Notes under the pieces: model-generated
What the model was told of the DNA's origin: nothing
Databases searched by the model: none
What the model saw: the letters and a program-made list of their open reading frames with translations, nothing else
Translations under genes and position numbers: made by a program
Source: an uncultured Eubacteriales bacterium
Lineage (GTDB): Bacteria > Actinomycetota > Coriobacteriia > Anaerosomatales > JAHIQC01
DNA length: 64,000 nucleotides
Assembly: GCA_964565645.1 (NCBI GenBank)
Contig: CAZMFQ010000011.1
Coordinates: 1,717-65,716 of the forward strand
Direction: 5' to 3'
Part shown: piece after piece, positions 115 through 25,388 of the stretch
Position numbering within the stretch: position 1 is the first letter of the stretch
Layout of the letters: each line of letters starts with the position of its first letter

Positions 115-198
115 ATCGAACAAAGGCATCGAGCGGACGGCGTCAGGTAGTATCAACCTGAGCGGTCTTGACCGCCGCTCATGCCTAACACGTTCGAC
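115..198 (+). repeat. attC site 1 (84 bp, family C)
   Basis: ATCGAAC...GTTCGAC; arms ggcatcgagcggacggc / accgccgctcatgcc. Confidence 0.85.
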
Positions 199-203
199 AT
201 GCT

Positions 204-878
204 GTGGTCGCTCAAGGGGGATTCGTGGCATCACCACGCTGGTGGAATACCGAGCTCCACAAGACGTCGGTGGCGTTCTACGCGCTCCTGAACACTTTCG
301 CATCGGCAGGCGTTCCCTGTCTCTTCATATACGCCGGCTGGTTCATGGAGACACTCAGGGGCGAACCCATTCCGCAGGTACCTCCGTGGATGATTCTCGT
401 GTGTGCTGCAACGTTCGTGTACTACGTTGTCTGGCTTGACTCGCGCCTCCCTGCGGTATTGAAGTTGCGCGAGCTTGTTGTCGAAGACGGTGACTACATC
501 TTCCGTGCGCAAGCCAATGCCGCATTCGGTGGTCGTTTTGGGCTTATGATCCCGTTGCTGGGACTGGCACGAGCAATGATGATCGGCCTCGCTTTGTTCG
601 GGGTTGTGTTCGCGGCGACGTTCTTTGGGGAAGGCTCGGGCCTTGCCTGGCTCGGACTCGGCATGGTCTTGCTGGCCGGAGCGGGCAACTGGCTCTCGTA
701 TTCGGAAGAGCGGTTGGAGATGAACGCCGCACTCGATGCTTTCGCCAAGTCCCATGGGGCTGATGACGGGCCACTGCTCGATGTGGCGACGGCTATTCGG
801 AGCAGGATCGTGGTGCCCGGTCGTGAGTCCGCGTCTGATGTCGAACTAGCGCTTCGAGCAGACGGCCAGGAGCGCTAG
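204..878 (+). CDS. Hypothetical membrane protein (cassette); reads into attC2
   Basis: About 4 hydrophobic segments; C-terminus ELALRADGQER* is encoded by attC. Confidence 0.75.
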   Translation: MVAQGGFVASPRWWNTELHKTSVAFYALLNTFASAGVPCLFIYAGWFMETLRGEPIPQVPPWMILVCAATFVYYVVWLDSRLPAVLKLRELVVEDGDYIFRAQANAAFGGRFGLMIPLLGLARAMMIGLALFGVVFAATFFGEGSGLAWLGLGMVLLAGAGNWLSYSEERLEMNAALDAFAKSHGADDGPLLDVATAIRSRIVVPGRESASDVELALRADGQER

Positions 879-923
879 ACTCATGAGAGCGCTGAGCCGC
901 TGCTCAAGCGCAACACGTTAGGC
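840..923 (+). repeat. attC site 2 (84 bp, family A)
   Basis: GTCGAAC-tagcgcttcgagcagacggcc...gccgctgctcaagcgcaacac-GTTAGGC. Confidence 0.95.
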
Positions 924-940
924 GTAGAAGGGCGAGTGAC

Positions 941-1858
941 TTGGGGGGCGATCCGCGAAGCGATTCAGAGCGTGTCGAGGACTTCTTCTCCCAGGAGGAG
1001 GGGCCCGATGCGACGGGGCGCCCCTCGGGGGGAGCCGCGAGTGACGTCGTTCAGACCGTGCCTTCGCCCGGCTATCGAGTCGGTGTGAGCGCCATGTTCG
1101 TCCTCGTCCTTCTCTTGGACGTCCTCATCACTCCGCGACCGGACTCCTCGGCCTTTGCGGGAATGAGGCCGTCGTGGTTCGCGGGACTCGCGCTCTGCGC
1201 GTTCGGTCTGTGGGTTTGGCGCATGATGGACCGACGTACCGCCAGTATCACGCCGCGCGCACGAATGTACATGCTTCTCTCAATCATGCTGGGACCGGTC
1301 CTCGCGCGATTCATGACAGCACTTGGCCCAGACATCGCCGCATTCGTTCTCGGCTCACTCGCCGCAATCCTGATTTGGCTGGCAATGCTCATTGGTGCTC
1401 CACGTACCGCCGGTGAAGGATCCGGTCAATCGGCTCCTTCCGTCGTTGACCTGCTGCCAGCGCGCACGGTACTGAGGCCTCGCGACTTCATGGACTGGAT
1501 CGGAGCGTTCCTGTTCACGGGAGCGGGCGGGTACCTGCTCGTGACGATCCCCGCAGCGCAGCCGGACGCGGCGGCGCGCATCCCGGCGTGGCTTGTCGGC
1601 GCCGCCCTTGCGGCGGTCAGCCACATCACCATGACGCAGTGGGGAAGTCGACGGTTGCGCCCGTTGCCGTCATTGTGGTTTCCCCTCATCTTCATGGCCC
1701 TGTTCGTGGGACTCGCACTAGCTGTCCGAACGGGGACGGCGGTCACACTCGCAGTTGATCTGTTCATCTCGTCCATCGTCGTGTTCGTCACCCTTGAAGG
1801 CGCGTTCCACATCTGGAGGTTGATCCGCTCACCCCGGGCGCAGCGCGTTCACGCCTAA
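941..1858 (+). CDS. Hypothetical multi-pass membrane protein (cassette)
   Basis: About 8 hydrophobic segments; TAA stop lies in the R'' box GCCTAAC. Confidence 0.8.
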   Translation: MGGDPRSDSERVEDFFSQEEGPDATGRPSGGAASDVVQTVPSPGYRVGVSAMFVLVLLLDVLITPRPDSSAFAGMRPSWFAGLALCAFGLWVWRMMDRRTASITPRARMYMLLSIMLGPVLARFMTALGPDIAAFVLGSLAAILIWLAMLIGAPRTAGEGSGQSAPSVVDLLPARTVLRPRDFMDWIGAFLFTGAGGYLLVTIPAAQPDAAARIPAWLVGAALAAVSHITMTQWGSRRLRPLPSLWFPLIFMALFVGLALAVRTGTAVTLAVDLFISSIVVFVTLEGAFHIWRLIRSPRAQRVHA

Positions 1859-1937
1859 CAATGGCATCGAGCAGAACGCCAGGAGGTAGACTGACCTGTA
1901 AGGCATAGGGCGTCTGCTCATGCCAAACACGTTAGGC
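1853..1937 (+). repeat. attC site 3 (85 bp, family C)
   Basis: GCCTAAC-aatggcatcgagcagaacgcc...ggcgtctgctcatgccaaacac-GTTAGGC. Confidence 0.9.
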
Positions 1938-1955
1938 TGGCAAAGGGTGGGCTGG

Positions 1956-2474
1956 ATGAGACTTGCGGTTGTCGCATTCCCACAGTTGGATCCGGAAGCC
2001 CTCGCTGCAGTCGAGTCCTTTCGTGCCCGTCACGACCCAATGGCGCAGCGTATCCAGGCGCACCTCACGATGGTCTTCCCGGCGGATGCCGATGCCGCTT
2101 CTTTGGCGGCTGAGATTCGCCTGGTCGCGGCTTCGAGTGCACCCGTGGACGTCACACTTGCTGACATCGATGTGTCGACCGGTATCGACGGCAGAAGCTA
2201 CGTGCTCCTCGAGGCTGTCGGCGGCCGTCCCTCTATCGAGAAGATGCACGATCGGCTGTACTCCGGGATGCTCGCGGATCAACTTCGCCACGATGTCGAG
2301 TATGTCCCGCACGTAACACTGGCTGTCAGCGAGGACCCGGAGGAAGCCGCGAGGTTGGCAGATGGTCTACTCGCATCCTGGAGTCCTGTGTCGGGTCGCA
2401 TTGTCGAACTCGTGCTCTTGGATCTTGAGCGCGATCCCTTCCGCACTGTCGAGGTGTTCTCGCTCGGCGGGTGA
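1956..2474 (+). CDS. 2H phosphoesterase / 2'-5' RNA ligase family protein (cassette)
   Basis: Two HxT motifs (AHLTMV, PHVTLA); ATG 1956 chosen because the ORF-track start lies inside attC. Confidence 0.85.
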   Translation: MRLAVVAFPQLDPEALAAVESFRARHDPMAQRIQAHLTMVFPADADAASLAAEIRLVAASSAPVDVTLADIDVSTGIDGRSYVLLEAVGGRPSIEKMHDRLYSGMLADQLRHDVEYVPHVTLAVSEDPEEAARLADGLLASWSPVSGRIVELVLLDLERDPFRTVEVFSLGG

Positions 2475-2478
2475 GGCA

Positions 2479-2592: not shown

Positions 2593-3126
2593 GTGCCCAT
2601 GTATCGCCGAACGCGTGCTCTGACTGCGACGGTTCTCGTCTGTCTCTTGCTCATAGGTACCGTAGCCTGTACCCGTAGCAGCGGGAGCGAAGGCTCGGAA
2701 GCGCCGGACGGCCCGATGATACTTGGCCCCTACTCCGCCGACGTGGCGGTTCACCTCGGTGACGTCACCATCATGGTCACTGATGTTCAAGTGCTCGAAG
2801 CAACCGCAACGGCCGGCTCATTCGTCTACGGGCTCTCAAACCGTCCGGGAGAAGCCGCACCAGAAGGCAGCCGGTTCGTCGACATCACAGTGCAGGTGGA
2901 CGATCCGGCCCGACGATACTTCGAGGCCGGTGGTCTGTTCACCTCACCGGTGGTCTTGGCTGACGGCGAACGGGTCGAGGTCGGGGAGCGCGCACGTAGC
3001 GGTGGCGATAGCCCGCTCATCGAGGAGCGTATGGAGTTCGCTGTTCCAGAGACAGCCCGCGATGTTGTGTTGCAGCTTCCGCTTAGCGGGGAGTCGACGG
3101 CTGTCCCTTCCTTTCGCTTGTGGTAG
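2593..3126 (+). CDS. Putative lipoprotein, Ig-like DUF4352-like fold possible (cassette)
   Basis: Basic N-terminus, hydrophobic core, lipobox TVAC. Confidence 0.75.
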   Translation: MPMYRRTRALTATVLVCLLLIGTVACTRSSGSEGSEAPDGPMILGPYSADVAVHLGDVTIMVTDVQVLEATATAGSFVYGLSNRPGEAAPEGSRFVDITVQVDDPARRYFEAGGLFTSPVVLADGERVEVGERARSGGDSPLIEERMEFAVPETARDVVLQLPLSGESTAVPSFRLW

Positions 3127-3130
3127 ATCG

Positions 3131-3214
3131 GCCTAACTAGCGCTTCGAGCAGACGGCCAGGAGCGCTAGACTCATGAGAGCGCTGAGCCGCTGCTCAAGC
3201 GCAACACGTTAGCG
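3131..3214 (+). repeat. attC site 5 (family A)
   Basis: GCCTAAC...GTTAGCG, 84 bp. Confidence 0.95.
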
Positions 3215-3220
3215 GGACGC

Positions 3221-3625
3221 CTAGACGCGTTTCGCGCTGTGCGAGCGGATCCAGTCCGCGAGTGTCGGCTCATCGAGTGTCCCGGAGGCCAGAGCGACCA
3301 TCGTGGTCACTACTTCGGACTCCTCGGCGGTGAACTCGAGACCGTTGAGTCCCAGGAACACCGCCATCGCCACGAAGGCCACACGTTTGTTGCCGTCGAC
3401 GTAGGGATGATTGCTCGACAGCCCGAACCCGTACGCTGCAGCAAGCCCGGCCAAGTCCGTCGACGGTTCATGCGCCAGCTTCTGGCGTGGGCGAGCGAGT
3501 GCGGATTCGAGCAGGTCCTCGTCTCGCAGTCCCGGCAGCCCTCCATGGGTGAGCAGCATGTCGGTGTGCACTGCGTCGATGACCACCCGCGTGACCCAGC
3601 GCGGTTCTTGTTTGCTGTGAGCCAT
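3221..3625 (-). CDS. doc: Fic/Doc family toxin (death-on-curing)
   Basis: Fic motif HPYVDGNKR; 134 aa; directly downstream of AbrB-type antitoxin. Confidence 0.92.
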   Translation of the reverse strand: MAHSKQEPRWVTRVVIDAVHTDMLLTHGGLPGLRDEDLLESALARPRQKLAHEPSTDLAGLAAAYGFGLSSNHPYVDGNKRVAFVAMAVFLGLNGLEFTAEESEVVTTMVALASGTLDEPTLADWIRSHSAKRV

Positions 3626-3628: not shown

Positions 3629-3856
3629 CTACTTGGCCAGTTCGCGCAATGCGTTGCGGTACGTGCGGGCCACGCTTGATGCGATCGCGAGCGCTTCTTC
3701 GGTGTCAGGATCGTAGGGGGTGAGCAGGATCCCGCGCTCCGTCTCGATGGCGATCACCGTGTCGCCGGCCTCGAGCTTGAGCCTGTCTGCCATGTCCTTG
3801 GGCAGCGTGGCGGCGATGGAGCCGCCGGCGCGCCGCAGTTTCACTCCCTGGGTCAT
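3629..3856 (-). CDS. AbrB/MazE/SpoVT family antitoxin
   Basis: KLRRAGGSIAATLPKDMADRLKLEAGD motif; GGAGG RBS before ATG 3856. Confidence 0.9.
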   Translation of the reverse strand: MTQGVKLRRAGGSIAATLPKDMADRLKLEAGDTVIAIETERGILLTPYDPDTEEALAIASSVARTYRNALRELAK

Positions 3857-3885
3857 CTTTGAGCCTCCGTAGATGGGTTGCATGG

Positions 3886-3907
3886 ATTGTAGCATACTTG
3901 TGCTACA
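3886..3907 (-). promoter_or_regulatory. TA promoter/operator: TGTAGCA-N6-TGCTACA inverted repeat overlapping extended -10 (TGcTACAAT, minus strand)
   Basis: Perfect 7-6-7 dyad, conserved in the second TA copy while flanking DNA diverges. Confidence 0.7.
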
Positions 3908-3915
3908 CAACCGCC

Positions 3916-3999
3916 CGCTAACTAGCGCTTCGAGCAGACGGCCAGGAGCGCTAGACTCATGAGAGCGCTGAGCCGCTGCTCAAGCGCAACACGTTAGAC
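3916..3999 (+). repeat. attC site 6 (family A)
   Basis: CGCTAAC...GTTAGAC. Confidence 0.95.
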
Positions 4000-4032: not shown

Positions 4033-4422
4033 ATGGATCTGCTTCCTCACGAGGACAAGCTGATGCGTTGTCTGCTCTCGGGTGATGACCCTATCCTGGC
4101 GGCCCTCCGTGCCCAGTACGATCAGGCAATCGTCGTTGATCGTGAGTACACCCGCTCGGGATTCTTCACGACGTTCCACGTCCCGCAAGACCTCCAGGCT
4201 GTCGTGCCTGCAGAGTTGCACATCGGCGATGTATGGTTCGATCGTGACGATGATGATGCTGGCGGGGAGGCGATCTTGTTCGTCAGTTCCGGACGTCTCG
4301 CCGTGCTCGAAGGCGTTGCCAGAAGTGGGGTCTGGCCGGAGGACGCGCTCGTAGGGGACATCCACTACTTCGGCGAGTCGAGAGACCTTGCCGCGTTGCG
4401 GGAGTCGTGGGGGGGGGTCTAA
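4033..4422 (+). CDS. Hypothetical acidic protein (cassette)
   Basis: RBS aggtaggg; stop within R'' GTCTAAC; no family recognised. Confidence 0.75.
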   Translation: MDLLPHEDKLMRCLLSGDDPILAALRAQYDQAIVVDREYTRSGFFTTFHVPQDLQAVVPAELHIGDVWFDRDDDDAGGEAILFVSSGRLAVLEGVARSGVWPEDALVGDIHYFGESRDLAALRESWGGV

Positions 4423-4500
4423 CTAGCGCTTCGAGCAGACGGCCAGGAGCGCTAGACTCATGAAAGCGCTGAGCCGCTGCTCAAGCGCAACACGTTAGAA
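4417..4500 (+). repeat. attC site 7 (family A)
   Basis: GTCTAAC...GTTAGAA. Confidence 0.95.
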
Positions 4501-4580: not shown

Positions 4581-4805
4581 ATGACCATCGAAGAATTGAA
4601 GCGCGAGGCACTGCGGCTCGACCCATCGGGTCGTGCTGATCTCGCCCGCGAGCTGCTCGAGAGTCTTGATGACCTACCTGAGTCGGAAGTCGAGCGCCTC
4701 TGGCTTGAAGAGGCTGAGCGCCGCCGGGTCGAGGTTCAGTCCGGCAACGTGACTCCGGTCCCGATGGATGAGGTCTTCGCAAGAGCGCGGGCAGCTCGCG
4801 CATGA
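4581..4805 (+). CDS. Addiction-module antitoxin component
   Basis: 74 aa; L..RADLARELLESLD...ERLWLEEAERR pattern; overlaps toxin start (ATGA). Confidence 0.85.
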   Translation: MTIEELKREALRLDPSGRADLARELLESLDDLPESEVERLWLEEAERRRVEVQSGNVTPVPMDEVFARARAARA

Positions 4806-5098
4806 GCCACTCGGTTGCGTTCGAGCCCACCGCCTCTCTTGAGCTCAACGAGGCGGCAGACTTCTACGACCTAGAGCGCCCTGGTTTGGGTACTGAGTTC
4901 CTCGACGCAGTCGAAGCCGCACTCATTGTCGTGGCAGACACGCCGGCCGCGTTCCCGATCGAACTGGGCGAGACGCGCAAGCGCGTCATCAGTCGATTCC
5001 CATACTCCATCATGTACTGGTTCGATGACGCTACCGTGCACGTTTCAGCCATCGCGCATCACAGGCAACGACCCCGGTACTGGGGTGACCGTCCTTAG
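4802..5098 (+). CDS. RelE/ParE family toxin
   Basis: 98 aa; RVISRFPYSIMY...VSAIAHHRQRPRYW. Confidence 0.88.
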   Translation: MSHSVAFEPTASLELNEAADFYDLERPGLGTEFLDAVEAALIVVADTPAAFPIELGETRKRVISRFPYSIMYWFDDATVHVSAIAHHRQRPRYWGDRP

Positions 5099-5109
5099 CT
5101 GTCGTGGGG

Positions 5110-5193
5110 TTCTAACTAGCGCTTCGAGCAGACGGCCAGGAGCGGTATTGTGATGAAAGCGCTGAGCCGCTGCTCAAGCGCAACACGTTGGGC
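5110..5193 (+). repeat. attC site 8 (family A, ggtattgtgatg loop subtype)
   Basis: TTCTAAC...GTTGGGC. Confidence 0.95.
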
Positions 5194-5267: not shown

Positions 5268-5666
5268 ATGGACTTCAGCAGTTGGCCAGCTATGGCTTAC
5301 ACGGTCTTGCCGGTCGTCGCATACGCGGGACTCCTGATTGGCGGGGTCTTCGTAGTCTATCGCCTCGTCACAGGGGCCTGGCACCCGGCGACCGCGGTTC
5401 CCATGGGATGGGCGTTATGCCCGGTCGCGCTCGTCAGTGGCATGATCGTGGCCACCATCGTGACTCCGGACTGGAACCCAATCACGATGTTCGTCTTCTG
5501 GATCCCATTCTTCACAATCGGCGCGTGGGCGCTCTACTTCTCAGTGTTCACGCAGCGCGGTCTCGACCGGGCGAAGGCCAGTCGGCGTGCGCTTCTATTG
5601 TCAGTTCCTTCGCTGCTCCTGGCCCCCTTGGTTGCGATGGCGGTACTGCTGTTTCCGGGTCTGTGA
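5268..5666 (+). CDS. Hypothetical membrane protein (cassette)
   Basis: 4 hydrophobic segments. Confidence 0.7.
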   Translation: MDFSSWPAMAYTVLPVVAYAGLLIGGVFVVYRLVTGAWHPATAVPMGWALCPVALVSGMIVATIVTPDWNPITMFVFWIPFFTIGAWALYFSVFTQRGLDRAKASRRALLLSVPSLLLAPLVAMAVLLFPGL

Positions 5667-5683
5667 TGGGCCATCGCTGGCTT

Positions 5684-5767
5684 GCCCAACTAGCTCTTCG
5701 AGCAGACGGCCAGAACCGCTAGACTCATGAAAGCGCTGAGCCGCTGCTCAAGCGCAACACGTTAGGT
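5684..5767 (+). repeat. attC site 9 (family A)
   Basis: GCCCAAC...GTTAGGT. Confidence 0.93.
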
Positions 5768-5795
5768 AGGGCGTAGATCGACGGGGGGCATTCGG

Positions 5796-6179
5796 GTGAT
5801 GCGAGGCCACTTGTTTGGACTGGATTTGCGCCTACTACTCCTGCTTGGCCTCAGCTCCCTGGTACTGCTTGCATGTTCACCCGGCTCACCGCCACGGCCC
5901 CAAGAGCAGCCGTATCGTTTTGATTCTGTTCGCTGGAAGCAGTCAATGCCGCATTCGCGCGATCTGGCGCAGGAGGTCATCGACAGGAGTCTGGTCAGTT
6001 CCATGACGCCCGAGCAGGTCTTCGAGTTGCTTGGTCCACCTGACTCATCTGCGATACCGGCGGACCTAGCTCCGGGGGACGAGTACCGAATCGGATTCTC
6101 GGTGGAGGCCACTCACGGTGTCGGGGAACTCGACTTACGCTTCTTGGGCGGGCGAGTGGCAGAGGCCGAACTGCACTGA
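5796..6179 (+). CDS. Putative lipoprotein with SmpA/BamE-like motif (cassette)
   Basis: Lipobox LLAC; MTPEQVFELLGPPD motif. Confidence 0.7.
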   Translation: MMRGHLFGLDLRLLLLLGLSSLVLLACSPGSPPRPQEQPYRFDSVRWKQSMPHSRDLAQEVIDRSLVSSMTPEQVFELLGPPDSSAIPADLAPGDEYRIGFSVEATHGVGELDLRFLGGRVAEAELH

Positions 6180-6202
6180 ATGCTGAGCGGTTGACGGCGC
6201 CT

Positions 6203-6286
6203 ACCTAACTGGCGCTTCGAGCAGACGGCCAGGAGCGGTATTGTGATGGAGGCGCTGGGCCGCTGCTCAAGCGCAACACGTTAGGA
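6203..6286 (+). repeat. attC site 10 (family A)
   Basis: ACCTAAC...GTTAGGA. Confidence 0.93.
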
Positions 6287-6302
6287 CTACCAAGGGGAGC
6301 GC

Positions 6303-6698
6303 ATGACACGTGTGGCAGTAGCGAGTCTGATCGCAGGCGCTGCCTTCCTCGTCATCGTGCTTGATGCTGGCGCGGGTCTTGGGGTTGCAGAACACCTGAT
6401 GATTCTCGCGATCGTAGTGGTAACCGGAATCGGCCCGTTCGCGTTCGGTGCGGTTGTTCGGCTGCTGTGGAAGTCGGATGACGTTCCGCAGGCCCTTCCT
6501 TGGCTGTTCGCCGTTGCGCTCGGCCTAATCCGGTATGTTGCGCCTCAATTCGGCGGGCTGACAGTCTGGGCTTCAAAGCCCATCTCGGTACTGATGACCA
6601 TCGCGCTGGGCGGTGCGTTTGCTGAACTAGGAATCGCTAGCGCTACCGCGATGCTGCGGCGTCGCGTCTTGCGTGATTCGGCGTCGTCTGAGTCCTAA
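6303..6698 (+). CDS. Hypothetical membrane protein (cassette)
   Basis: 4 hydrophobic segments; RBS ggggag; stop in R''. Confidence 0.8.
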   Translation: MTRVAVASLIAGAAFLVIVLDAGAGLGVAEHLMILAIVVVTGIGPFAFGAVVRLLWKSDDVPQALPWLFAVALGLIRYVAPQFGGLTVWASKPISVLMTIALGGAFAELGIASATAMLRRRVLRDSASSES

Positions 6699-6776
6699 CT
6701 AGCGCTTCGAGCAGACGGCCAGAACCGCTAGACTCATGAGAGCGCTGAGCCGCTGCTCAAGCGCAACACGTTAGAC
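6693..6776 (+). repeat. attC site 11 (family A)
   Basis: TCCTAAC...GTTAGAC. Confidence 0.95.
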
Positions 6777-6791
6777 ACCTTTGGGGGACAA

Positions 6792-7442
6792 TTGCGGCGA
6801 CTCGGGGTAGTGGCGATCGTGTTCGTCGGTCTGACTGCGATCGCGCAGGCGATCACGACCCTGGCGGGCAATGCCTGGGCGTTTGTTGCCCTCACCGAAC
6901 CGGCCATCGAGAATGTCCTCACGGTCGTTGGGCTTGTGGCGAGTGTTGTCCTCTCACTTGCGTTCGGATTCGTCCTGCTAGCCAAGCGCCATCGGCTCGC
7001 TGACCGGCTTCTCGATGACACAGAGGTCGATTTCGCCATCGACGGAGTGACAATGCTCCGAGTCGCGGTGATCGTCTTTGGACTGATACTGCTTGTCGGC
7101 TCAGTTCCTCGGCTGGTCAGTTCTGTGAGTTCGTGGGCAACCCAAGTGGCTCTAGAGCGTTCCTATGACATGGAGCTCACCCAAGAAACCGGTGAGTACT
7201 GGTCCATGGTCGCAAGCGCGCTGATCGGCATCATCGAAGCAGTGGTCGGCGCCGTCTTCCTTGTGCGCTCGCAATGGCTGGCTGAGCGCCTGTGGTTCGG
7301 TGCGCGGCCCGTCGCTGTCGCTGCCTCGCCCTCGTCCAATTGCCCAAGTTGTGGAGCCGGGTTCGACCCCGACGACTACGTGGACAGGGCCAACGCACGC
7401 TGCGTCGAATGCCGTGAGCTGCTATTCCCAGAAAGTGTCTAA
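6792..7442 (+). CDS. Membrane protein with C-terminal Zn-ribbon (cassette)
   Basis: 4 TM segments, then CPSC...CVEC; stop in R''. Confidence 0.78.
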   Translation: MRRLGVVAIVFVGLTAIAQAITTLAGNAWAFVALTEPAIENVLTVVGLVASVVLSLAFGFVLLAKRHRLADRLLDDTEVDFAIDGVTMLRVAVIVFGLILLVGSVPRLVSSVSSWATQVALERSYDMELTQETGEYWSMVASALIGIIEAVVGAVFLVRSQWLAERLWFGARPVAVAASPSSNCPSCGAGFDPDDYVDRANARCVECRELLFPESV

Positions 7443-17824: not shown

Positions 17825-17863
17825 AGAACGCGATGGCTCGGTCGGCGAGAAGGCAGGCATGCT

Positions 17864-18304: not shown

Positions 18305-18312
18305 GGCGTATT

Positions 18313-18668: not shown

Positions 18669-18708
18669 ATCCCGGCGCATACGCCGAGATTCGAGGTCCA
18701 AGGGAGCG

Positions 18709-19383
18709 ATGATGAACGCACGTGCGACCCGCAGTGGTGAACCGCGCGACACCCTGACTCGCGAACGCGTGCTACGCGCCGCGATCGAGTTGGCGGACGA
18801 GCGCGGCATCGACGCGCTCACCATGCGCGAGCTCGCGAGGAAGCTCGGCGTCGAAGGGGGCTCGCTCTACTACCATGTCGCGGGCAAAGGCGACCTTCTC
18901 GACGGTATGACGGATCTCGTCGCGGCAGAGATCGAAGTGCCCTCGGGGTCCTCGGACTGGAAAGAAGCCATGCGGCGGCGCGCGATCTCCGCGCGCGACG
19001 TCTTCTCGCGGCATCCATGGGCGAGCGGAGTCATAGACTCTCGTGAGCACAGCGGGCCGGCCCAGCTGGCCTATGCCGACCGTGTCCTAGGAACGCTGCT
19101 CGCGGCCGGTTTCACGCCGCGGGCGGCCGCCAACGCGTTCCTGATCCTCGACAGCTACATCCACGGCTTCCAGCGCCAGCAATCTAGTCTGGCACTACCT
19201 GAGGGTGTGGAGACGTTCGACGTCGCCGAGGAACTGCTCGCGGAACTCACGCCCGACGCGTACCCGTCTCTGCTGACCATCGCGGCCGACTTCGCTACGG
19301 ACCCGCACGACGAGACGAGCCTTTTCGAGTTCGGTCTCGATCTCATCCTCGACGGTCTCCAGCGCTCGCTCGAATCCCAGTGA
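18709..19383 (+). CDS. TetR family regulator (TetR_C type)
   Basis: LTRERVLRAAIELADERGIDALTMRELARKLGVEGGSLYYHV; FEFGLDLILDGL. Confidence 0.92.
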   Translation: MMNARATRSGEPRDTLTRERVLRAAIELADERGIDALTMRELARKLGVEGGSLYYHVAGKGDLLDGMTDLVAAEIEVPSGSSDWKEAMRRRAISARDVFSRHPWASGVIDSREHSGPAQLAYADRVLGTLLAAGFTPRAAANAFLILDSYIHGFQRQQSSLALPEGVETFDVAEELLAELTPDAYPSLLTIAADFATDPHDETSLFEFGLDLILDGLQRSLESQ

Positions 19384-19445
19384 TCCCCCGCTCAGCGCTC
19401 GGCGCCGCCGGCGTCGCGCGAGCGGCCGAAGAAAGGAATGGCGTC

Positions 19446-20414
19446 ATGAATGCGATCGTCCAAACCGGCTACGGCTCCTCGGATGTGATCGAGTGCCGGC
19501 AGATCGACAAGCCCGCACCGGGTGACGGGCAGGTGCTCGTCCGCGTGATGGCGACCTCGCTCGCGGCGGGCGAGTACTTCGGCATGCGAGGCAAGCCGGT
19601 CCCGATCCGCTTGTACATGGGGCTTCTCAAGCCCAAGCCCGGCTTCGTCGTCGGCATCTCGTTCGCGGGGGTCGTCGAGTCCGTCGGCGGCAAAGTGACC
19701 GAGTTCCGCCCGGGCGACGAGGTCTACGGCGAGTGCCACGGCTCGTGCGCCGAGTTCGCGGTCGCCGATGTCGGCTCCATCGCGCCGAAGCCCCGCAACC
19801 TGACGTTCGAGCAGGCGGCGGCGGTGCCCACGTCCGCGTGTACGGCACTCCAGGCCCTCCGCGACCACGGCAAGGTCCGCCCGGGACACAAGGTGCTCAT
19901 CAACGGCGCGTCGGGTGGCGTCGGGACCTTCGCGGTGCAGATCGCGAAGGCGCTCGGTGCAGAGGTGACCGGGGTCTGCAGCACGGGCAACGTCGAGATG
20001 GTCCGCTCGCTCGGCGCCGACCACGTCATCGACTACACAAAGGAAGACTTCACCAAAGGCAGCGCGCGCTACGACGTGATTCTGGACAACGTGGGCAGCC
20101 ACTCGCTCTCGGACACCAGGCGCGTGCTCGAGCCCGACGGGCTGCTGCTGCCGAGCAGCGGGCACGCCGGTATGAGTTGGGTGATCGCCGCGGCGATCTC
20201 CTCGATGTTCGTCCGGCAGCAGGGTCGGGTCTTCATGGCTCTCACCGACACCCAGAGCCTGCTCGCGCTGAGTGAGCTCATCGAGGCCGGCACGGTGACG
20301 CCGGTCATCGATAGGACGTATCTGCTGAGTGAGACCGCGCGCGCCTTCGAGTACCTGGACGAGGGACATGCGCGCGCGAAGGTCGTTGTATCCGTGGCAG
20401 CGAGCGCAGCATGA
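19446..20414 (+). CDS. NAD(P)-dependent oxidoreductase (MDR / quinone oxidoreductase-like)
   Basis: GHKVLINGASGGVGTFAVQIAK; ADHVIDYT; VTPVIDRTY. Confidence 0.9.
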   Translation: MNAIVQTGYGSSDVIECRQIDKPAPGDGQVLVRVMATSLAAGEYFGMRGKPVPIRLYMGLLKPKPGFVVGISFAGVVESVGGKVTEFRPGDEVYGECHGSCAEFAVADVGSIAPKPRNLTFEQAAAVPTSACTALQALRDHGKVRPGHKVLINGASGGVGTFAVQIAKALGAEVTGVCSTGNVEMVRSLGADHVIDYTKEDFTKGSARYDVILDNVGSHSLSDTRRVLEPDGLLLPSSGHAGMSWVIAAAISSMFVRQQGRVFMALTDTQSLLALSELIEAGTVTPVIDRTYLLSETARAFEYLDEGHARAKVVVSVAASAA

Positions 20415-20815
20415 GCGCTTCTGCCGGAGGGGGCGTGGGAACGATGGTCGATGTGAGGGTCATCCTGTCGGCTCTGTGGGGATCCCTGATGCTGGTATTC
20501 CTGCTTGGGGACGTGCTTCGGATCTTTGCGGGGGACTACACGGCGGGTGAGCTGGCGGGCGTCCCGGCGTCTCAACCGATGTGGGTCGGTGTCGCGGCGA
20601 TGATGTCGACTCCGATTCTGATGATGGTGCTGTCTCTCGTGGTGCCGTATCCGGCGATCCGGTGGGTCTGCATCGTCGCGGCGGGCGCCTGGGTGGTCTT
20701 GAACCTTATGGGCCTGCCGTACCCGGGTGCGTACGACAACTTCCTTATCGGCGTCGGCGTCATCGTGTGTGGGGCGATCATCTGGTACGCGTGGACGTGG
20801 TCGGTGGTCGGATAG
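20411..20815 (+). CDS. DUF6326-like membrane protein
   Basis: LSALWGSLMLVFLLGDVLRIF; 4 TM; coupled to upstream gene. Confidence 0.7.
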   Translation: MSASAGGGVGTMVDVRVILSALWGSLMLVFLLGDVLRIFAGDYTAGELAGVPASQPMWVGVAAMMSTPILMMVLSLVVPYPAIRWVCIVAAGAWVVLNLMGLPYPGAYDNFLIGVGVIVCGAIIWYAWTWSVVG

Positions 20816-20954
20816 CAGTGGTCACGCCGTCCAGCATGCTTATGTGTCAGCGGCGCAAGCCGCCCGGCGCTTGCGGGGTACGGCGCTGTCGTGCAAGAAG
20901 CGTGTCGCCCCATTGGCGCACGCACATCCGGTGAGGCGCCGGGTACTCCAATCA

Positions 20955-21031
20955 CCCAGACAATCGCGCAGAACGGCCAGGAACGTTAGACTCATGAAGG
21001 CGCTGGGCCGCTCAAGCGCAACACGCTAGCC
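20955..21031 (+). repeat. attC site 28 (degenerate family A)
   Basis: Keeps aacggccaggaacgttagactcatgaaggcgctgggccgctcaagcgcaacac; core mutated to GCTAGCC; left arm eroded. Confidence 0.75.
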
Positions 21032-21068
21032 ATAGCCGGGAGGCGTTCGTCGACGGGGGGTCGCGGCG

Positions 21069-21212
21069 ATGAGTGACAGGAATCCGAATCCGAACGACTG
21101 GAATCGCGACTACACCGTTGGCACAGGCCGCAGCCCGGTGATGTTCTGGCTGGGCATGGGCTTCATCCTGCTCGTGTTCGGCGGCGCGGCGATCGGCTAC
21201 TTCTTCTACTGA
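21069..21212 (+). CDS. 47-aa small membrane protein (cassette; not in ORF track)
   Basis: MSDRNPNPNDWNRDYTVGTGRSPVMFWLGMGFILLVFGGAAIGYFFY*; only ORF between attC28 and attC29. Confidence 0.65.
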   Translation: MSDRNPNPNDWNRDYTVGTGRSPVMFWLGMGFILLVFGGAAIGYFFY

Positions 21213-21234
21213 GCGCGCGTGTCGTGAATGGCAT

Positions 21235-21339
21235 GGCTAGAAGGCGTTTCGACGCGATTCACCTTGGCCGTGTGCGGTATCGTGAGTCGTGACAGCGCGT
21301 GGGGCCTGCGGTTCACGGGTCAACGCACAGACGTTGGCG
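21235..21339 (+). repeat. attC site 29 (105 bp, family B, mutated R'')
   Basis: GGCTAGA...GTTGGCG. Confidence 0.82.
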
Positions 21340-21345
21340 GGACGC

Positions 21346-21750
21346 CTACACGCGTTTCGCGCTGTGCGAGCGGACCCAGTCCGCGAGCTCCGGCTCATCG
21401 AGTGTCGCGGAGGCCAAGGCGACCATCGTGGTCACCACGTCGGACTCCTCGGCAGTGAACTTAAGACCGTTCAGTCCCAGGAACACTGCCATCGCCACAA
21501 AGGCCAGGCGCTTGTTGCCGTCGATGTAGGGATGGTTGCTCGACAGCCCGAACCCGTATGCCGCCGCAAGTCCGGCCAGGTCCGTGGACGGTTCATGTGC
21601 CAGCTTCTGGCGTGGGCGCGCCAGTGCGGATTCGAGTCGGCCCTCGTCTCGCAGCCCCGGCAGCCCTCCGTGGGTGAGCAGCATATCGGTGTGCACCGCG
21701 TCGATGACCACCCGCGTGACCCAGCGCGGTTCTTGGTTGCTGTGAGCCAT
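21346..21750 (-). CDS. doc: Fic/Doc family toxin (copy 2)
   Basis: HPYIDGNKR; diverged paralog of 3221..3625. Confidence 0.92.
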   Translation of the reverse strand: MAHSNQEPRWVTRVVIDAVHTDMLLTHGGLPGLRDEGRLESALARPRQKLAHEPSTDLAGLAAAYGFGLSSNHPYIDGNKRLAFVAMAVFLGLNGLKFTAEESDVVTTMVALASATLDEPELADWVRSHSAKRV

Positions 21751-21753
21751 GGG

Positions 21754-21981
21754 TTACTTGGCAAGCTCGTGCAATGCGTTGCGGTACGTGCGGGCCACGC
21801 TCGACGCGATCGCGAGCGCTTCTTCGGTGTCAGGATCGTAGGGGGTGAGCAGGATCCCACGATCCGTCTCAATGGCGATCACCGTGTCGCCGGCCTCGAG
21901 TTTGAGCCTGTCCGCCATGTCCTTGGGCAGCGTGGCGGCAATCGAGCCGCCAGCGCGCCGCAGTTTCACTTCCTGAGTCAT
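21754..21981 (-). CDS. AbrB/MazE family antitoxin (copy 2)
   Basis: MTQEVKLRRAGGSIAATLPKD; GGAGG RBS. Confidence 0.9.
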   Translation of the reverse strand: MTQEVKLRRAGGSIAATLPKDMADRLKLEAGDTVIAIETDRGILLTPYDPDTEEALAIASSVARTYRNALHELAK

Positions 21982-22011
21982 CTTCAGGCCTCCGTCGATA
22001 GGGTCACACCG

Positions 22012-22033
22012 ATTGTAGCATACTTGTGCTACA
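22012..22033 (-). promoter_or_regulatory. TA operator/extended -10 (copy 2)
   Basis: ATTGTAGCATACTTGTGCTACA, identical to 3886-3907. Confidence 0.7.
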
Positions 22034-22041
22034 CAACCGCC

Positions 22042-22125
22042 CGCTAACTCGCGCTTCGAGCAGACGGCCAGGAGCGGCGTCTTGATGGAGGCGCTGAACG
22101 CCTGCTCAAGCGCAACATGTTGGGC
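22042..22125 (+). repeat. attC site 30 (family A, diverged)
   Basis: CGCTAAC...GTTGGGC. Confidence 0.9.
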
Positions 22126-22190
22126 ACACCCGGCTATGTGGCCACCCTCCGCAACTAGCGCCCCGCTAGGCACTGGCCCAAGGCATCCTG

Positions 22191-23171
22191 CTAGCCGGCG
22201 ACGGGCGATGCTGCTTCGCTCTGCGCCTCGCACCACCTGGCGTGCATCGAATCGTAGTGCCCGTACATGAACGGGCAGCGCTTGATGCACAACGTGCACC
22301 CGTCCATCGTGCTGAAAGGCACCGCGCACTTTGCGTGGTCGATGAAGACCGGGCCGCCTTCGGGGGCCTCTCGCGGTTCCAGATAGATAGCGTCAGCGGG
22401 GCAGTGCTTCACGCAGGCGTTGCACGTGTCGCAGTAGTCGCGGACCCAGGAGTGGGGATTCTCCTCGGCGAACCGCAGGTTCTCGATGTCGGTGTAGACG
22501 GCGGCCAGTCGAACACGGGGACCGTAGGCCTTGGTGATGATCATGCCGTTCTTGCCGACCTCGCCAAGGCCGGCATCACGCGCAATGGGAACGAAGCTAC
22601 CTTCGCTTCCCAGCGCCGGACCCGCATGAGCGTTGAAGCCGCGCTCGCGCAGGAAGTCAGACAGTTGGTTCACGACGTGACCCAGCTTGTAGTACGTGCG
22701 AAAGATCTCTAGGAAGGTCGGCACGCTGGGGGCCTGCTTGATCTTCTCGAAATCCATCTCCATCGTGAACACGATGGCGTTGGGATACAGGATGCTCAGG
22801 TCCTTGAAGATGTAGTCGGGGTTCACCCGCGTGTACCCGATGTCCGAGACACCCAGCGAGCGAGCGTAGTCCTCTAACTCAACCAGCGTCTCCGGCGCCA
22901 CCTCCACGTTTCCGAGCCGCGGGTTCTCACGGATGCTCACGTTGGCCCTGCGCAACTCGCGAATGTTGATGGCCATCAGTCTCCAGATGCGGCCGATTCG
23001 TCTGACGCGGCCCCATAGGCTGCCGTAGTCCAGAATCACCAGTGGGACGAGACGGGGGTATCGCGCATTGGGTCCACTGTGAAGAGGATGGTCGCCTTCC
23101 CGCAGGTAGTGGTCCTTGTTGAGGAACCAGGGCGGGCGGCGGAACCTCTCGGAGAGCAGCGGTCGCTTCAC
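22191..23171 (-). CDS. Reductive dehalogenase/QueG-like 2x[4Fe-4S] protein (probably cobalamin-binding), no TAT signal
   Basis: ARDAGLGEVGKNGMIIT..GPRVRLAAVYTD; CxxCxxCxxxCP and Cx9CxxCxxxCP; GTG 23171 after AGGAGG. Confidence 0.8.
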   Translation of the reverse strand: MKRPLLSERFRRPPWFLNKDHYLREGDHPLHSGPNARYPRLVPLVILDYGSLWGRVRRIGRIWRLMAINIRELRRANVSIRENPRLGNVEVAPETLVELEDYARSLGVSDIGYTRVNPDYIFKDLSILYPNAIVFTMEMDFEKIKQAPSVPTFLEIFRTYYKLGHVVNQLSDFLRERGFNAHAGPALGSEGSFVPIARDAGLGEVGKNGMIITKAYGPRVRLAAVYTDIENLRFAEENPHSWVRDYCDTCNACVKHCPADAIYLEPREAPEGGPVFIDHAKCAVPFSTMDGCTLCIKRCPFMYGHYDSMHARWCEAQSEAASPVAG

Positions 23172-23181
23172 GGTCGACCTC

Positions 23182-23757
23182 CTATTGAGTGGGGCGCCAG
23201 CGGGCGAGTAGCGCGTCCACGTGAAGCGGGATGAAGTCGCGCGAGACGATGCGGCCGGCGATGAACCTCTCGTAGAAGAACGGTCCGGCAATCAGCGACA
23301 GGGCCGTTTCGAAGGGCACGTCCATCGCGATGGTTGCCCGAGCCACCTCTCGCTGCAGCAGACGCATCATTTCGTCCTCGGCGTGCGCGAGTACCCCGTC
23401 GAGGAAGGAGCGCATCTCCGGTTCCCAGTCCGCACGTGCGATGAGCGATGACATCGCGAGGGCACTCGGCGATTCCAGTCGGGAGCAGAGCGTTTCGAGC
23501 ATGAACACGAGGCCATCGCGGAGTGAGAGATCCTCGGGTACTCCAATCGACAGCGACAGCGCCTCGAGGGCCTCAAGCATGAGACTCTGGCGATCCGGCC
23601 AGTGTCGGTAGACAGTAGCGCGCCCGATACCTGCGCGCTCTGCCACACGCTGGTGGGTGATCGCCTCAGGACCATCCTCTTGAAGCAATTCAAGCGCTGC
23701 CGCGGTGACGAGTTCTCTTGTACGCTCGATTCTGGGGTCGGTGACAGTGAGGCCCAT
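23182..23757 (-). CDS. TetR/AcrR family regulator
   Basis: RIERTRELVTAAALELLQEDGPEAITHQRVAERAGIGRATVYRHW. Confidence 0.9.
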   Translation of the reverse strand: MGLTVTDPRIERTRELVTAAALELLQEDGPEAITHQRVAERAGIGRATVYRHWPDRQSLMLEALEALSLSIGVPEDLSLRDGLVFMLETLCSRLESPSALAMSSLIARADWEPEMRSFLDGVLAHAEDEMMRLLQREVARATIAMDVPFETALSLIAGPFFYERFIAGRIVSRDFIPLHVDALLARWRPTQ

Positions 23758-23792
23758 GGTGTACTCCAGAGAAAGGAAGGGAAGTCCGCGAA

Positions 23793-23837
23793 TTATGATA
23801 CAGGTTGTCTCGTTATGATACAAGACGTCTCATTATG
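23793..23837 (-). promoter_or_regulatory. Promoter TTGTAT-N17-TATCAT (minus strand) within tandem 20-bp repeats; likely TetR operators
   Basis: ttatgatacaggttgtctcg / ttatgatacaagacgtctca / ttatg. Confidence 0.65.
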
Positions 23838-23862
23838 CGTGATTGGCAAGCTGAGTGCGGGT

Positions 23863-23963
23863 GTCCAACAAACGCATAGACACCGACAAGCCGGTCGGGT
23901 GAGGTAGACTCAGTGGCAAGCGCGCAGGAGCCGGTTTGCGGGTCATGCGCAAACACGTAAGGC
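23863..23963 (+). repeat. attC site 31 (101 bp, diverged)
   Basis: GTCCAAC-aaacgcatagacaccgacaagccgg...ccggtttgcgggtcatgcgcaaacac-GTAAGGC. Confidence 0.78.
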
Positions 23964-23984
23964 AGAGCGCTGGGGGGCGGAAAG

Positions 23985-24164
23985 ATGCCAATACTGGGGG
24001 ATCCGCAAGGCACGCAGGCGCGGGCGATTGATACCGAGCGCAAGTACCCCGCGGCCCGGGCCCAGGAGCCACCACCCTCCTACCGTCGCAAGCAGCTACT
24101 CGTGCTCGCGGCACTGATCGGGGTCCCGGCGCTGGTATACGCGTTCACTCGGTTGCTCGGTTGA
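23985..24164 (+). CDS. 59-aa small protein with C-terminal TM helix (cassette; not in ORF track)
   Basis: MPILGDPQG...RRKQLLVLAALIGVPALVYAFTRLLG*; fills the cassette between attC31 and attC32. Confidence 0.6.
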   Translation: MPILGDPQGTQARAIDTERKYPAARAQEPPPSYRRKQLLVLAALIGVPALVYAFTRLLG

Positions 24165-24170
24165 GTGCCT

Positions 24171-24254
24171 GCCCAACTAGCGCTTAGAGCAGACGGCCAG
24201 GAGCGGTATTGTGATGAGAGTGCTGGGCGTCTGCTCAAGCACAACACCATAGGC
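24171..24254 (+). repeat. attC site 32 (family A, core mutated)
   Basis: GCCCAAC...CATAGGC. Confidence 0.85.
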
Positions 24255-24282
24255 ATCCACGTCTGCGAGTCGGGTGATCCAT

Positions 24283-24555
24283 ATGTGCCGCAACATTCAC
24301 GTTCTGTTCAACTTCGAACCTCCCGCGACCGACGAGGAGATTCGGGCCGCCGCCGCGCAGTACGTGCGCAAGATCAGCGGCTATGCCAAGCCGTCGGCGG
24401 CGAACGAGGCAGCTTTCAACCGTGGCATCGATGAGATCGCACAGGCATCCGCTCGCATGCTCGACTCTCTGGTCACAGCCGCCCCGCCCCGCGATCGTGA
24501 GCGCGAGGCAGAGAAGGCTCGTGAGCGGGCTCGTCATCGATTCGGTGATGCCTAG
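24283..24555 (+). CDS. DUF2277 family protein (cassette)
   Basis: MCRNIHVLFNFEPPATDEEIRAAAAQYVRKISG. Confidence 0.88.
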   Translation: MCRNIHVLFNFEPPATDEEIRAAAAQYVRKISGYAKPSAANEAAFNRGIDEIAQASARMLDSLVTAAPPRDREREAEKARERARHRFGDA

Positions 24556-24641
24556 CGGGCGTTTCGACCCGATGAGCCTTGGCCGTGTCAGGTATCGTGA
24601 GTGGCAGCATGGGCCGCTGCTCACGCCGAAACACGTTAGGC
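24550..24641 (+). repeat. attC site 33 (family B, internally shortened, R'' mutated)
   Basis: GCCTAGC-gggcgtttcgacccgatgagccttggcc...GTTAGGC. Confidence 0.78.
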
Positions 24642-24741
24642 GCAGGAGGGAGGGCTAGATGCGCGGGCTCGTGAAGTCGCTCCTCGTGATCTGGTTGGTG
24701 ATGGGCCGCGGATAGAAGGCAACACGTCGGACACGATACGG

Positions 24742-25293
24742 ATGGGTCTGGGGAGTGTATCGATGGCGGAGCACGAACAGGAGAGGGAGTACCTCCTGGC
24801 TGAGTTCAGCGAATCGTTCCAGCATCTGGGCAAGCTGGATGACCGTCGATTCGAGATCCTGCAGTTCTACTCGGCCTTCATCGCTGCCGTGGTTGCCGCC
24901 TCGGCAGCGATACTCGGCCTCGAAGCCCTCTCATCCGCGTACCGGGTCGTCGGGGTCGCTTCCCTGCTCCTGGTTTCAGCGCTCGTCTCGTGGGCGATCG
25001 GACAGGTGCTCCGGAGTGAGCGGGCGGCGACCGAGCGCTACCGAAACAAGCTGAACGCGATTCGTTGCGTGCTTCTGTCGGGGGAGCGCTCCCCTGAGAT
25101 GAACGAGTTCATCGCGAAGGGAAGCCGCATCTCGATCGGTCTGACTGACATTGCGCACAAGCATCTGCGTTTCTGGGACATCTTCTTCAGGCAGAGGCAC
25201 TGCACTGCGCTCTACATCAAGGTGTTGATCGACGTCGGGTTCGCCCTTTCGCTGGTAGCGGCGATCGTTCTCCTGCTGAAGGCCTTCATCTAG
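24742..25293 (+). CDS. Hypothetical membrane protein (last cassette)
   Basis: 2 TM hairpin, soluble loop, C-terminal TM. Confidence 0.72.
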   Translation: MGLGSVSMAEHEQEREYLLAEFSESFQHLGKLDDRRFEILQFYSAFIAAVVAASAAILGLEALSSAYRVVGVASLLLVSALVSWAIGQVLRSERAATERYRNKLNAIRCVLLSGERSPEMNEFIAKGSRISIGLTDIAHKHLRFWDIFFRQRHCTALYIKVLIDVGFALSLVAAIVLLLKAFI

Positions 25294-25304
25294 TCCGAGC
25301 TCGT

Positions 25305-25388
25305 GCCGAAAACCGGGCTTCAAGCGGACCGGCGAGAGTCTGACCCGAGGAGGCGCAGAGCCGAGGCTGAGCCGCGATCACGTCGACC
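25305..25388 (+). repeat. attC site 34 (strongly decayed)
   Basis: GCCGAAA-accgggcttcaagcggacc...gctgagccgcgatcac-GTCGACC; 84-bp spacing retained. Confidence 0.5.

Follow-up and report, generated by a model that had tools for sequence, protein, structure and literature searches.

An integron-type cassette array in an uncultured Coriobacteriia genome, very probably the distal part of a sedentary chromosomal integron

The window analysed here is a stretch of 64,000 nucleotides of contig CAZMFQ010000011.1, and its first 25 kb carry an array of short gene cassettes separated by attC sites, the recombination sites of integrons. To judge from its sequence, the window very probably covers the part of a sedentary chromosomal integron that lies away from the integrase, 24.5-25.3 kb with 33-34 cassettes, and the chromosome downstream of it, in an uncultured monoderm host of the Coriobacteriia that resembles OPB41/Anaerosomatales. 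The locus is chromosomal, it contains at least 33 cassettes (more than 20 are required of a sedentary integron), and its attC sites are highly similar. The sequence shows the cores, the conserved attC structure, the cassette boundary rule, and the co-orientation and compactness expected of an integron cassette array. The initial annotation of this DNA had proposed a large sedentary-type array with an attC family of its own, a proposal supported by the array, the attC structure, the rule that the cassette boundaries follow and the integrases of relatives.

attC sites and cassette boundaries

The attC sites were located with a covariance model built from 26 attC sequences, 17 from the window and nine from related loci, with a hand-specified structure consisting of the AAC/GTT pairs and a 16-bp L stem. 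Run unfiltered over all 64 kb and both strands, the model matched 33 sites on the plus strand between 115 and 24641, at 13-97 bits. All but one of these have E≤3e-4; the remaining site, at 21235-21339, has E=0.16. The best site lies at 14032-14115 (97.2 bits). The minus strand returned echoes of the same sites at 11-22 bits, scoring 70-80 bits lower. The model found no match from 24.7 to 64 kb, and Rfam and tRNA scans of the window gave no matches. Direct-repeat analysis of 1-30000 revealed repeat families of 84-106 nt, spaced 470-2600 bp apart on a single strand. The direct repeats and the covariance model together confirm 33 of the 33-34 co-oriented sites annotated initially. The putative 34th site (25305-25388) was undetected by the model at E≤1; by eye it retains the GCTTCAAGCGGAC 5' arm and the CACGTCGAC 3' end, and it may at best be an attC relic.

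A dominant and homogeneous 84-bp family, as annotated, accounts for 22 of the sites, with a mean pairwise identity of 89.9% over a 76-nt core and two loop variants, TAGACTCATGA and TATTGTGATGA. Outside this family are five sites of 100-106 nt and three of 84-93 nt with other sequences. The attC lengths of 84-106 nt differ in the loop alone.

The ..AAC...GTT.. cores are intact in 26 of the first 27 sites. The L arms read GCGCTT-C-GAGCAG-A-CGGC and GCCG-CTGCTC-AAGCGC, as had been annotated, and folding the bottom strand as DNA reproduced the annotated extrahelical bases and variable loop. In this fold the R' and R'' boxes pair, followed by an unpaired spacer of 5 nt on one side and 2 nt on the other and by a 16-bp stem in which, on the R''-L'' arm, a G and a T separated by six base pairs are extrahelical; the variable terminal loop closes the hairpin. 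The fold has z scores of -3.6 to -7.9, and none of 200 shuffled sequences folds equally well. This arrangement, G, six base pairs, T, would match that of attC-aadA7. In the 26-sequence alignment the R box pairs hold in 97% of cells, and Watson-Crick pairing is found in 95.7% of cells, compared to 26-32% when partners are slid by 1-3 columns. Compensatory two-sided changes occur in 11 of the 16 L-stem pairs, whereas one-sided changes of the G-T type occur in two cells only. Such a near absence of one-sided G-T intermediates is expected of a DNA hairpin. An RNA structure was considered and rejected, since the stem changes are nearly all two-sided without G-U intermediates and known integrons use the DNA form.

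Integron crossover takes place between the G and the TT of R'. The final six bases of each R' are thus part of the following cassette and should pair with that cassette's own R''. The window follows this rule. At the start of every cassette stands the TTRRRY half of the R' box before it, complementary to the cassette's own R'', and at 25 of the first 26 junctions the bases after the GTT of one site complement those before the AAC of the next over 5-7 nt. Over all junctions the complementarity averages 5.1 nt, compared to 1.8 nt within sites and 1.2 nt for unrelated pairs. The complementarity of the 5' end of each cassette to its own R'' indicates that the cassettes all passed through a circular form, cut and joined at G/TT. 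No other repeat class predicts this complementarity. Repeats of the repetitive extragenic palindrome, miniature inverted-repeat transposable element or CRISPR type were rejected as candidates, as they leave unexplained the G/TT junction rule, the AAC/GTT cores, and the integrase and attI of relatives.

Integrases of related loci and the host chromosome

An IntI-like gene is present on JAXMMT010000034.1 (Coriobacteriia O10_metabat.bin.1). Relatives of this IntI with 68-74% identity are encoded in five further Coriobacteriia metagenome-assembled genomes (MAGs), some on contigs as long as 1,059,566 bp and 502,742 bp, and an IntI with 88% identity and integrase Pfam domains is encoded on a Joint Genome Institute (JGI) contig of 1,593,035 bp. 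In an NCBIfam scan five of the integrases pass TIGR02249 (cutoff 265 bits) at 460-475 bits over the full model length, and the same five score 328-380 bits with the class 1 equivalog NF011946, below its cutoff of 435 bits. Aligned to IntI1, six of the relatives' integrases show both the catalytic residues (R, K, HxxR, H, Y) and the IntI-specific insertion. NCBI annotation already names an "integron integrase [Coriobacteriia bacterium]". The initial annotation held that a lack of IntI among relatives would speak against a native integron; several Coriobacteriia assemblies carry a full-length integrase accompanied by attC sites of the window's family. As a side observation, an "integron integrase [Aeromicrobium sp.]" (P0200) with 74% identity to Coriobacteriia IntI lies on a 2.9-kb contig, and may either extend IntI to a second actinobacterial order or result from a binning error.

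In six loci (L115, L121, L124, L126, L127 and L196) sites of the same attC family lie downstream of intI on the same strand, at 44-82 bits, and number five in L115, at least 12 in L121 and 16 in L196. Same-family sites in loci of the Coriobacteriia type score 55-97 bits with the window-family covariance model, whereas IntI loci of other phyla score 20-48 bits. By these scores the attC family of the window appears lineage-specific. High-scoring sites of the family occur in at least 10 MAGs labelled Coriobacteriia or Actinomycetota and deposited by different studies. A search for exact attC 20-mers in species-representative genomes found arrays only in MAGs labelled Actinomycetota, Coriobacteriia or Anaerosomatales and on one "Caldisericota" contig. 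This contig (L006, JAUSAI010000115.1) has at least 10 same-family sites, one of 91.9 bits. With 61% G+C, atypical for Caldisericota, it is likely mis-binned, the alternative being cross-phylum sharing. In JGI metagenomes an exact attC 20-mer scan found true sites on only two contigs, both short and lacking an integrase.

An attI was found in five of the related loci. Its left half is conserved (...AGAATCAYT GTT), and it lies 114-201 bp past the intI stop codon in four loci and ~960 bp past it in L127. The 5-7 nt after the attI GTT vary by locus and complement the first attC's R'', as predicted by insertion of cassettes at attI. One related Logan contig (L197, SRR5506721, positions 11077-11090) stops 2 nt after the predicted crossover GTT of attI, while the JGI assembly reads on into a cassette; the two apparently come from the same organism, as their intI proteins are identical and their upstream gene order agrees. 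This contig end would fit heterogeneity of the population at the insertion point. In most of the loci the integrase is co-directional with the cassettes, an "inverted" layout that the initial annotation had not anticipated.

Relatives of this kind suggest how the complete system may be arranged and may work. The integrase gene would lie upstream of base 1 of the window and be transcribed towards the cassettes, and attI (...AGAATCAYT G/TT) would follow ~115-200 bp after it; in one subgroup of relatives the integrase lies just downstream of leuC-leuD. IntI would excise cassettes by recombination between the folded bottom strands of two attC sites, and excised cassettes would be reinserted at attI. 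Cassettes near attI would be expressed from an upstream promoter or by read-through, and distal cassettes such as those in the window would be a mostly silent reserve, stabilised by toxin-antitoxin cassettes.

The chromosome beyond the array points to a host within the Coriobacteriia. A conserved backbone at 35023-62724 encodes Abhydrolase_3, TetR, DusB, TipA-type MerR, bPH_2 and CWB2 proteins and a spermidine synthase, and is syntenic with a 34-kb Logan contig (L195, SRR13192684) at 90-95% nucleotide identity; the DusB homolog on that contig is 96% identical. Relative to it the window has three insertions, at 39077-41966, 46725-47869 and 48766-53674, which encode, respectively, an NTP-transferase/aminotransferase/CDP-alcohol phosphatidyltransferase operon, a FUSC_2 membrane protein, and a 1588-amino-acid FG-GAP/cadherin/CWB2 surface protein. 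The named homologs of DusB (45690-46742, plus strand; 68-77%) and of a fused MFS/spermidine synthase (58673-60226; 62-71%) come only from MAGs of Coriobacteriia, Anaerosomatales or Actinomycetota. The backbone also contains two large CWB2 cell-wall-binding proteins, real as annotated, and a TipA-type regulator, which fit a monoderm. Cultured Anaerosomatales have a Gram-positive wall (PMC9686372). The DusB and MFS/spermidine synthase homologs and the CWB2 proteins thus bear out the monoderm actinobacterial host proposed initially.

The same gene order accompanies a complete integron on the 1,593,035-bp contig. There RlmL, a GNAT, an isopropylmalate/homocitrate synthase, leuC, leuD and VapBC are followed by intI, attI and 16 attC sites; Abhydrolase_3 (minus strand) lies ~20 kb after the last attC, and a Coriobacteriia-type DusB (plus strand) 9.3 kb further. 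In the window the array is followed after 10 kb by Abhydrolase_3 (35554-36462, minus strand) and after another 9.2 kb by DusB, and the two proteins share 55% and 71% amino acid identity, respectively, with their counterparts. Given that order, strands and spacing of these anchors match, the window is most simply read as the distal part of the homologous locus. The leuCD-intI junction itself recurs in three assemblies whose IntIs are 83-100% identical.

The array has a G+C content of 58-66%, mostly 61-63%, and the backbone of 64-71%. The GC skew is positive across the window, and from the skew alone the attC bottom strands would be on the leading-strand template. This orientation is found in 25 of 30 known sedentary integrons and in the largest arrays (PMC5371416). 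A TetR and DUF4386 pair in the backbone (36459-38082) has homologs of 61% and 35% between attC sites of an array in UBA2286 (L111, 4453-5867), and TetR homologs also occur in four other arrays. These homologs hint at traffic between backbone and cassettes.

The distal end and alternative explanations

The six most distal detected attC sites are weak; five score 13-39 bits, and the site at 24171-24254 scores 66.5 bits. An intact site (22042-22125) sits among them. At least four distal sites have mutated cores, with GCT, GTA or CAT in place of GTT, or AGC in place of AAC. With these cores the end of the array looks frozen, and the six or seven most distal sites are probably immobilised. The core changes at 20959-25388 suggest decay away from the integrase.

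Between the array and the backbone lie ~10 kb (25389-35022) free of attC sites and filled with mostly short accessory genes, mostly on the plus strand, with four genes on the minus strand at 31598-33880. They encode a YgaP-like protein, DUF1801, a methyltransferase, Arr, Fer4, two Imm5-like proteins, an ABC-2 transporter, PadR and a GNAT. This region may be a hypervariable extension of the array or consist of decayed cassettes; a 59% homolog of the GNAT at 33996-34490 is found within the L121 array. The two Imm5-like genes (31042-31575, 8e-36; 34483-35028, 3e-26) have no obvious toxin partner nearby. The arr gene, which the initial annotation had used to characterise the host, is real (Arr-ms, 137.6 bits), but at 29189-29734 it stands outside the array among these accessory genes. 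It was rejected as a cassette, lying 4 kb past the last attC site.

Several observations weigh against assignment of the window to a resident sedentary integron. A six-frame phmmer search with IntI1 found no tyrosine recombinase in the window and no recombinase in the first 27 related loci either, and the attI motif is absent from the window. The integrase, attI, promoter and recombination activity of this genome are putative. Without intI, attI or the cassette promoter Pc, the window taken alone falls under the definition of a cluster of attC sites lacking integron-integrases (CALIN), though only because it starts inside the array. The taxonomic labels of the MAGs are the depositors' own. A tblastx comparison of five Coriobacteriia loci from GTDB found no common context upstream of intI. 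The six Coriobacteriia IntIs cluster with 70% bootstrap in a quick neighbour-joining tree, and IntIs of many diderm phyla are about as close, at 70-74% identity, so that horizontal transfer may have introduced the system; one old acquisition of IntI is plausible. Finally, the link between array and backbone at 25.4-35.0 kb is the only part of the join without support from an independent assembly, and the related Logan contig L195 ends exactly at position 35023 of the window.

Loss of the integrase, or its separation by rearrangement, would have left an orphan cassette cluster, a true CALIN, whose cassettes could move only with an integrase supplied in trans. Such a cluster would account for 64 kb with no integrase and for the decaying distal cores, and in the related contigs L011 and L113 no IntI lies within 4-9 kb of the array end. 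However, the array simply runs off the start of the window, and 26 consecutive sites retain intact cores and high scores. An array in UBA2286 likewise runs off its 65-kb contig at the integrase side. Several relatives have intI, five of them with a recognisable attI as well, directly upstream of same-family arrays, and the synteny anchors of the window match those of the complete integron on the 1.59-Mb contig. An orphan cluster is thus unlikely.

Repeats can break and mis-join assemblies, and an array from a diderm might in this way have been joined to, or binned with, a Coriobacteriia backbone. The unconfirmed junction, the somewhat lower G+C content of the array and the presence of its attC family on the Caldisericota-binned contig L006 are consistent with such an artefact. 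Yet the latter contig is itself more likely mis-binned, same-family sites recur in the MAGs of different studies, and intI with its array is embedded in contigs of 1.06 and 1.59 Mb, the latter with a Coriobacteriia-type DusB. Since the order of array, Abhydrolase_3 and DusB also recurs in an independent assembly, an artefact is highly improbable. A recent import on a transposon, plasmid or integrative and conjugative element would explain the similarity of IntI to those of diderm phyla and the variable upstream context of the integron among Coriobacteriia MAGs. The window has no transposition, conjugation or plasmid genes, nothing similar was found among 72,556 plasmids, and the large array has a homogeneous, lineage-specific attC family. 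Furthermore, the relatives' integrases fall below the IntI1 equivalog cutoff, and the leuCD-intI junction is shared by closely related IntIs. A recently imported mobile integron is extremely improbable, and a resident sedentary integron is the reading retained here.

Cassette contents and comparison to known integrons

The cassettes have a median length of 650 bp and usually contain a single open reading frame (ORF) on the plus strand. A leader of 17-45 nt with a purine-rich, Shine-Dalgarno-like motif precedes the typical ORF, and its stop codon falls inside R'' or a few bases from it. One sigma-70-like site was found, compared to 3.5 expected, in a scan that is weak for this phylum. The contents, which are typical of sedentary integrons, include three to four toxin-antitoxin modules, three GNATs, HNH and HEPN proteins, duplicated cassettes and many ORFs without a Pfam match. 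No antibiotic-resistance family was matched among the cassette ORFs scanned.

The window start cuts cassette 1, whose end carries a divergent 84-nt attC (115-198, plus strand; 65.9 bits, fold z=-5.4). The following units lie on the plus strand unless stated otherwise. Cassette 2 encodes a membrane protein with no Pfam match, and its ORF (204-878) runs into the attC at 840-923 (92.9 bits). Cassette 3 contains a 305-amino-acid membrane ORF with no Pfam match (941-1858), whose TAA stop lies inside the R'' of an 85-nt attC (1853-1937, 80.3 bits). A 2'-5' RNA ligase-like protein (PF13563) is encoded by cassette 4 (ORF 1920/1956-2474), which ends in an attC of the 106-nt family (2479-2584, 69.8 bits). 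A 100% identical copy of 1105-2570 is present in a Logan contig of ERR3839024, indicating the same cassette order in an independent assembly. This 1.5-kb contig was the sole exact match to the protein of 1920-2474, and exact look-ups of the proteins at 24742-25293 and 25739-26269 returned no record. Cassette 5 has a lipoprotein-like ORF with no Pfam match (2593-3214; attC 3131-3214, 89.4 bits). Cassette 6 has on its minus strand a Fic/Doc toxin (3221-3625, PF02661, 1e-14) and a MazE/AbrB-type antitoxin (3629-3910, PF04014, 1e-9), with the attC on the plus strand (3916-3999, 91.1 bits). After cassette 7, a no-Pfam ORF (4033-4500; attC 4417-4500, 94.9 bits), cassette 8 encodes an Unstab_antitox antitoxin and a ParE toxin (4581-5193; PF09720, 6e-13; PF05016, 4e-6; attC 5110-5193, 95.8 bits).

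Cassettes 9-12 (5268-7520) are four single no-Pfam ORFs with attC sites of 83-95 bits at 5684-5767, 6203-6286, 6693-6776 and 7437-7520. Cassette 13 (7536-8170; attC 8087-8170) encodes an HNH endonuclease (PF01844) and is a 100% duplicate of cassette 21 (12795-13429). Cassettes 14 and 15 share 8210-9386; the former has a no-match ORF that is a 97% duplicate of 17864-18304 (attC 8659-8742), and the latter a protein with a SecDF_P1_head-like domain (attC 9303-9386). Within 9408-10579 are cassette 16, with a CarboxypepD_reg-like ORF and a 106-nt attC (9831-9936, 56.5 bits), and cassette 17, with a RiboL-PSP HEPN ORF (PF18735, 1e-21; attC 10496-10579, 96.2 bits). Cassettes 18-20 (10578-12779) encode a trypsin-like peptidase, a SAM methyltransferase and a GNAT, with attC sites at 11398-11481, 12138-12221 and 12674-12779. 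The HNH duplicate and then a no-match ORF form cassettes 21-22 (12795-14115; attC sites 13346-13429 and 14032-14115).

Cassette 23 (14116-15889) has two genes, one for an HTH and ImmA/IrrE metallopeptidase protein, RmrA-like, and one for DUF4411 (PF06114, 1e-20; PF14367, 9e-27; PADLOC RmrA, 2e-25), and a 93-nt attC (15797-15889, 78.2 bits). The pair (13987-15794) resembles toxin-antitoxin defence pairs of the RosmerTA type. Cassettes 24-27 (15891-18396) contain a no-match ORF, a reverse-strand GNAT (16693-17205), another no-match ORF and the duplicate of cassette 14; their attC sites are at 16594-16698, 17267-17350, 17741-17824 and 18313-18396. Cassette 28 (18397-21031) has three genes, for TetR, a zinc-type dehydrogenase and DUF6326, and a decayed attC whose GTT core reads GCT (20959-21031, 30.5 bits). 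Over 2441 bp (18507-20943) it is 95% identical to a cassette of the UBA2286 array (L016, 2650-5090) that has different neighbours, and an 80% copy of this cassette is found in L114.

Unit 29 begins at 21032, is 309 bp long and lacks an ORF; its attC (21235-21339) is very weak, at 13.4 bits (E 0.16). Cassette 30 is a 91% duplicate of the Fic/Doc toxin-antitoxin cassette, with the toxin on the minus strand (21346-21750) and the attC on the plus strand (22042-22125, 74 bits). Cassettes 31-33 (22126-24641) contain a reverse-strand Fer4 protein and TetR, a 59-amino-acid ORF, and DUF2277. Their attC sites are at 23863-23963 (38.6 bits, core GTA), 24171-24254 (core CAT) and 24550-24641 (plus strand, 23.3 bits, R'' core AGC). 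The last putative cassette (24742-25388) has a 183-amino-acid membrane ORF and ends in the possible attC relic described above.

In its large chromosomal array with one dominant, homogeneous attC family, the window resembles the Vibrio cholerae repeat (VCR) superintegron and the sedentary integrons of Xanthomonas, Pseudomonas and Shewanella. Sedentary integrons likewise have compact, mostly single-ORF cassettes, some of them duplicated, with toxin-antitoxin cassettes interspersed, some of these on the reverse strand, and the attC bottom strands are likewise apparently on the leading-strand template. The Xanthomonas integron adjoins ilvD, and in a subgroup of the window's relatives the integron adjoins the amino-acid operon leuCD. 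Unlike Vibrio-type integrons, the window has dominant attC sites of 84 nt rather than about 120-129 nt and a monoderm actinobacterial host. The relatives also differ from that type in that their intI and cassettes run in one direction, with attI after intI; the window itself shows no integrase end.

That layout, with attC sites following intI on one strand, is shared with inverted-integrase integrons of the Treponema denticola type, also found in cyanobacteria, Chlorobi and Planctomycetota. Identity between the Coriobacteriia IntIs and those of this group is 56-74% (61% for a Treponema denticola IntI), whereas the host phylum and the attC family are different. The system is a classical inverted-integrase integron in a new monoderm host lineage; the mechanism is a known one, and this is not a new kind of system. 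Class 1 integrons of Corynebacterium and other Gram-positives also place integron components inside Actinomycetota, but those integrons are mobile and imported, and they have IntI1, a small number of resistance cassettes and attC sites that are heterogeneous, in contrast to the window's array of at least 33 cassettes without a matched resistance family and to the relatives' non-class 1 scores. The complete integron of another phylum regarded as Gram-positive, a rare case, comes from a single genome, whereas here at least 10 MAGs of one actinobacterial class are involved.

Complete integrons were missing from Actinobacteria in surveys of complete genomes, which described this as intriguing (PMC4889954, PMC9024848); an older survey had raised the same gap (PMC2426708), and a 2026 MAG study reported that integrons are virtually absent in Actinomycetota (PMC13323075). 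The literature searched contained no paper on integrons in Coriobacteriia beyond passing mentions. It is likely that a clade of free-living monoderm Coriobacteriia, consisting of OPB41/Anaerosomatales and relatives, carries resident, active chromosomal integrons that combine an attC family of their own with a recognisable attI and an inverted integrase. In that case, Actinomycetota would have been reported to lack native integrons because cultured genomes were sampled, and not because of a biological incompatibility with Gram-positive cells or their machinery. The array of the window, together with the integrases and attC sites on megabase contigs of relatives and the attI on the 1.59-Mb contig, makes this question directly testable. 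Anaerosoma and Parvivirga are possible cultured relatives for screening, and a cognate set of IntI, attI and attC from a monoderm, high-G+C host could be used in recombination assays. The arrays would also constitute a reservoir of uncharacterised cassettes, including toxin-antitoxin and candidate defence modules, from Actinomycetota of the anoxic subsurface.

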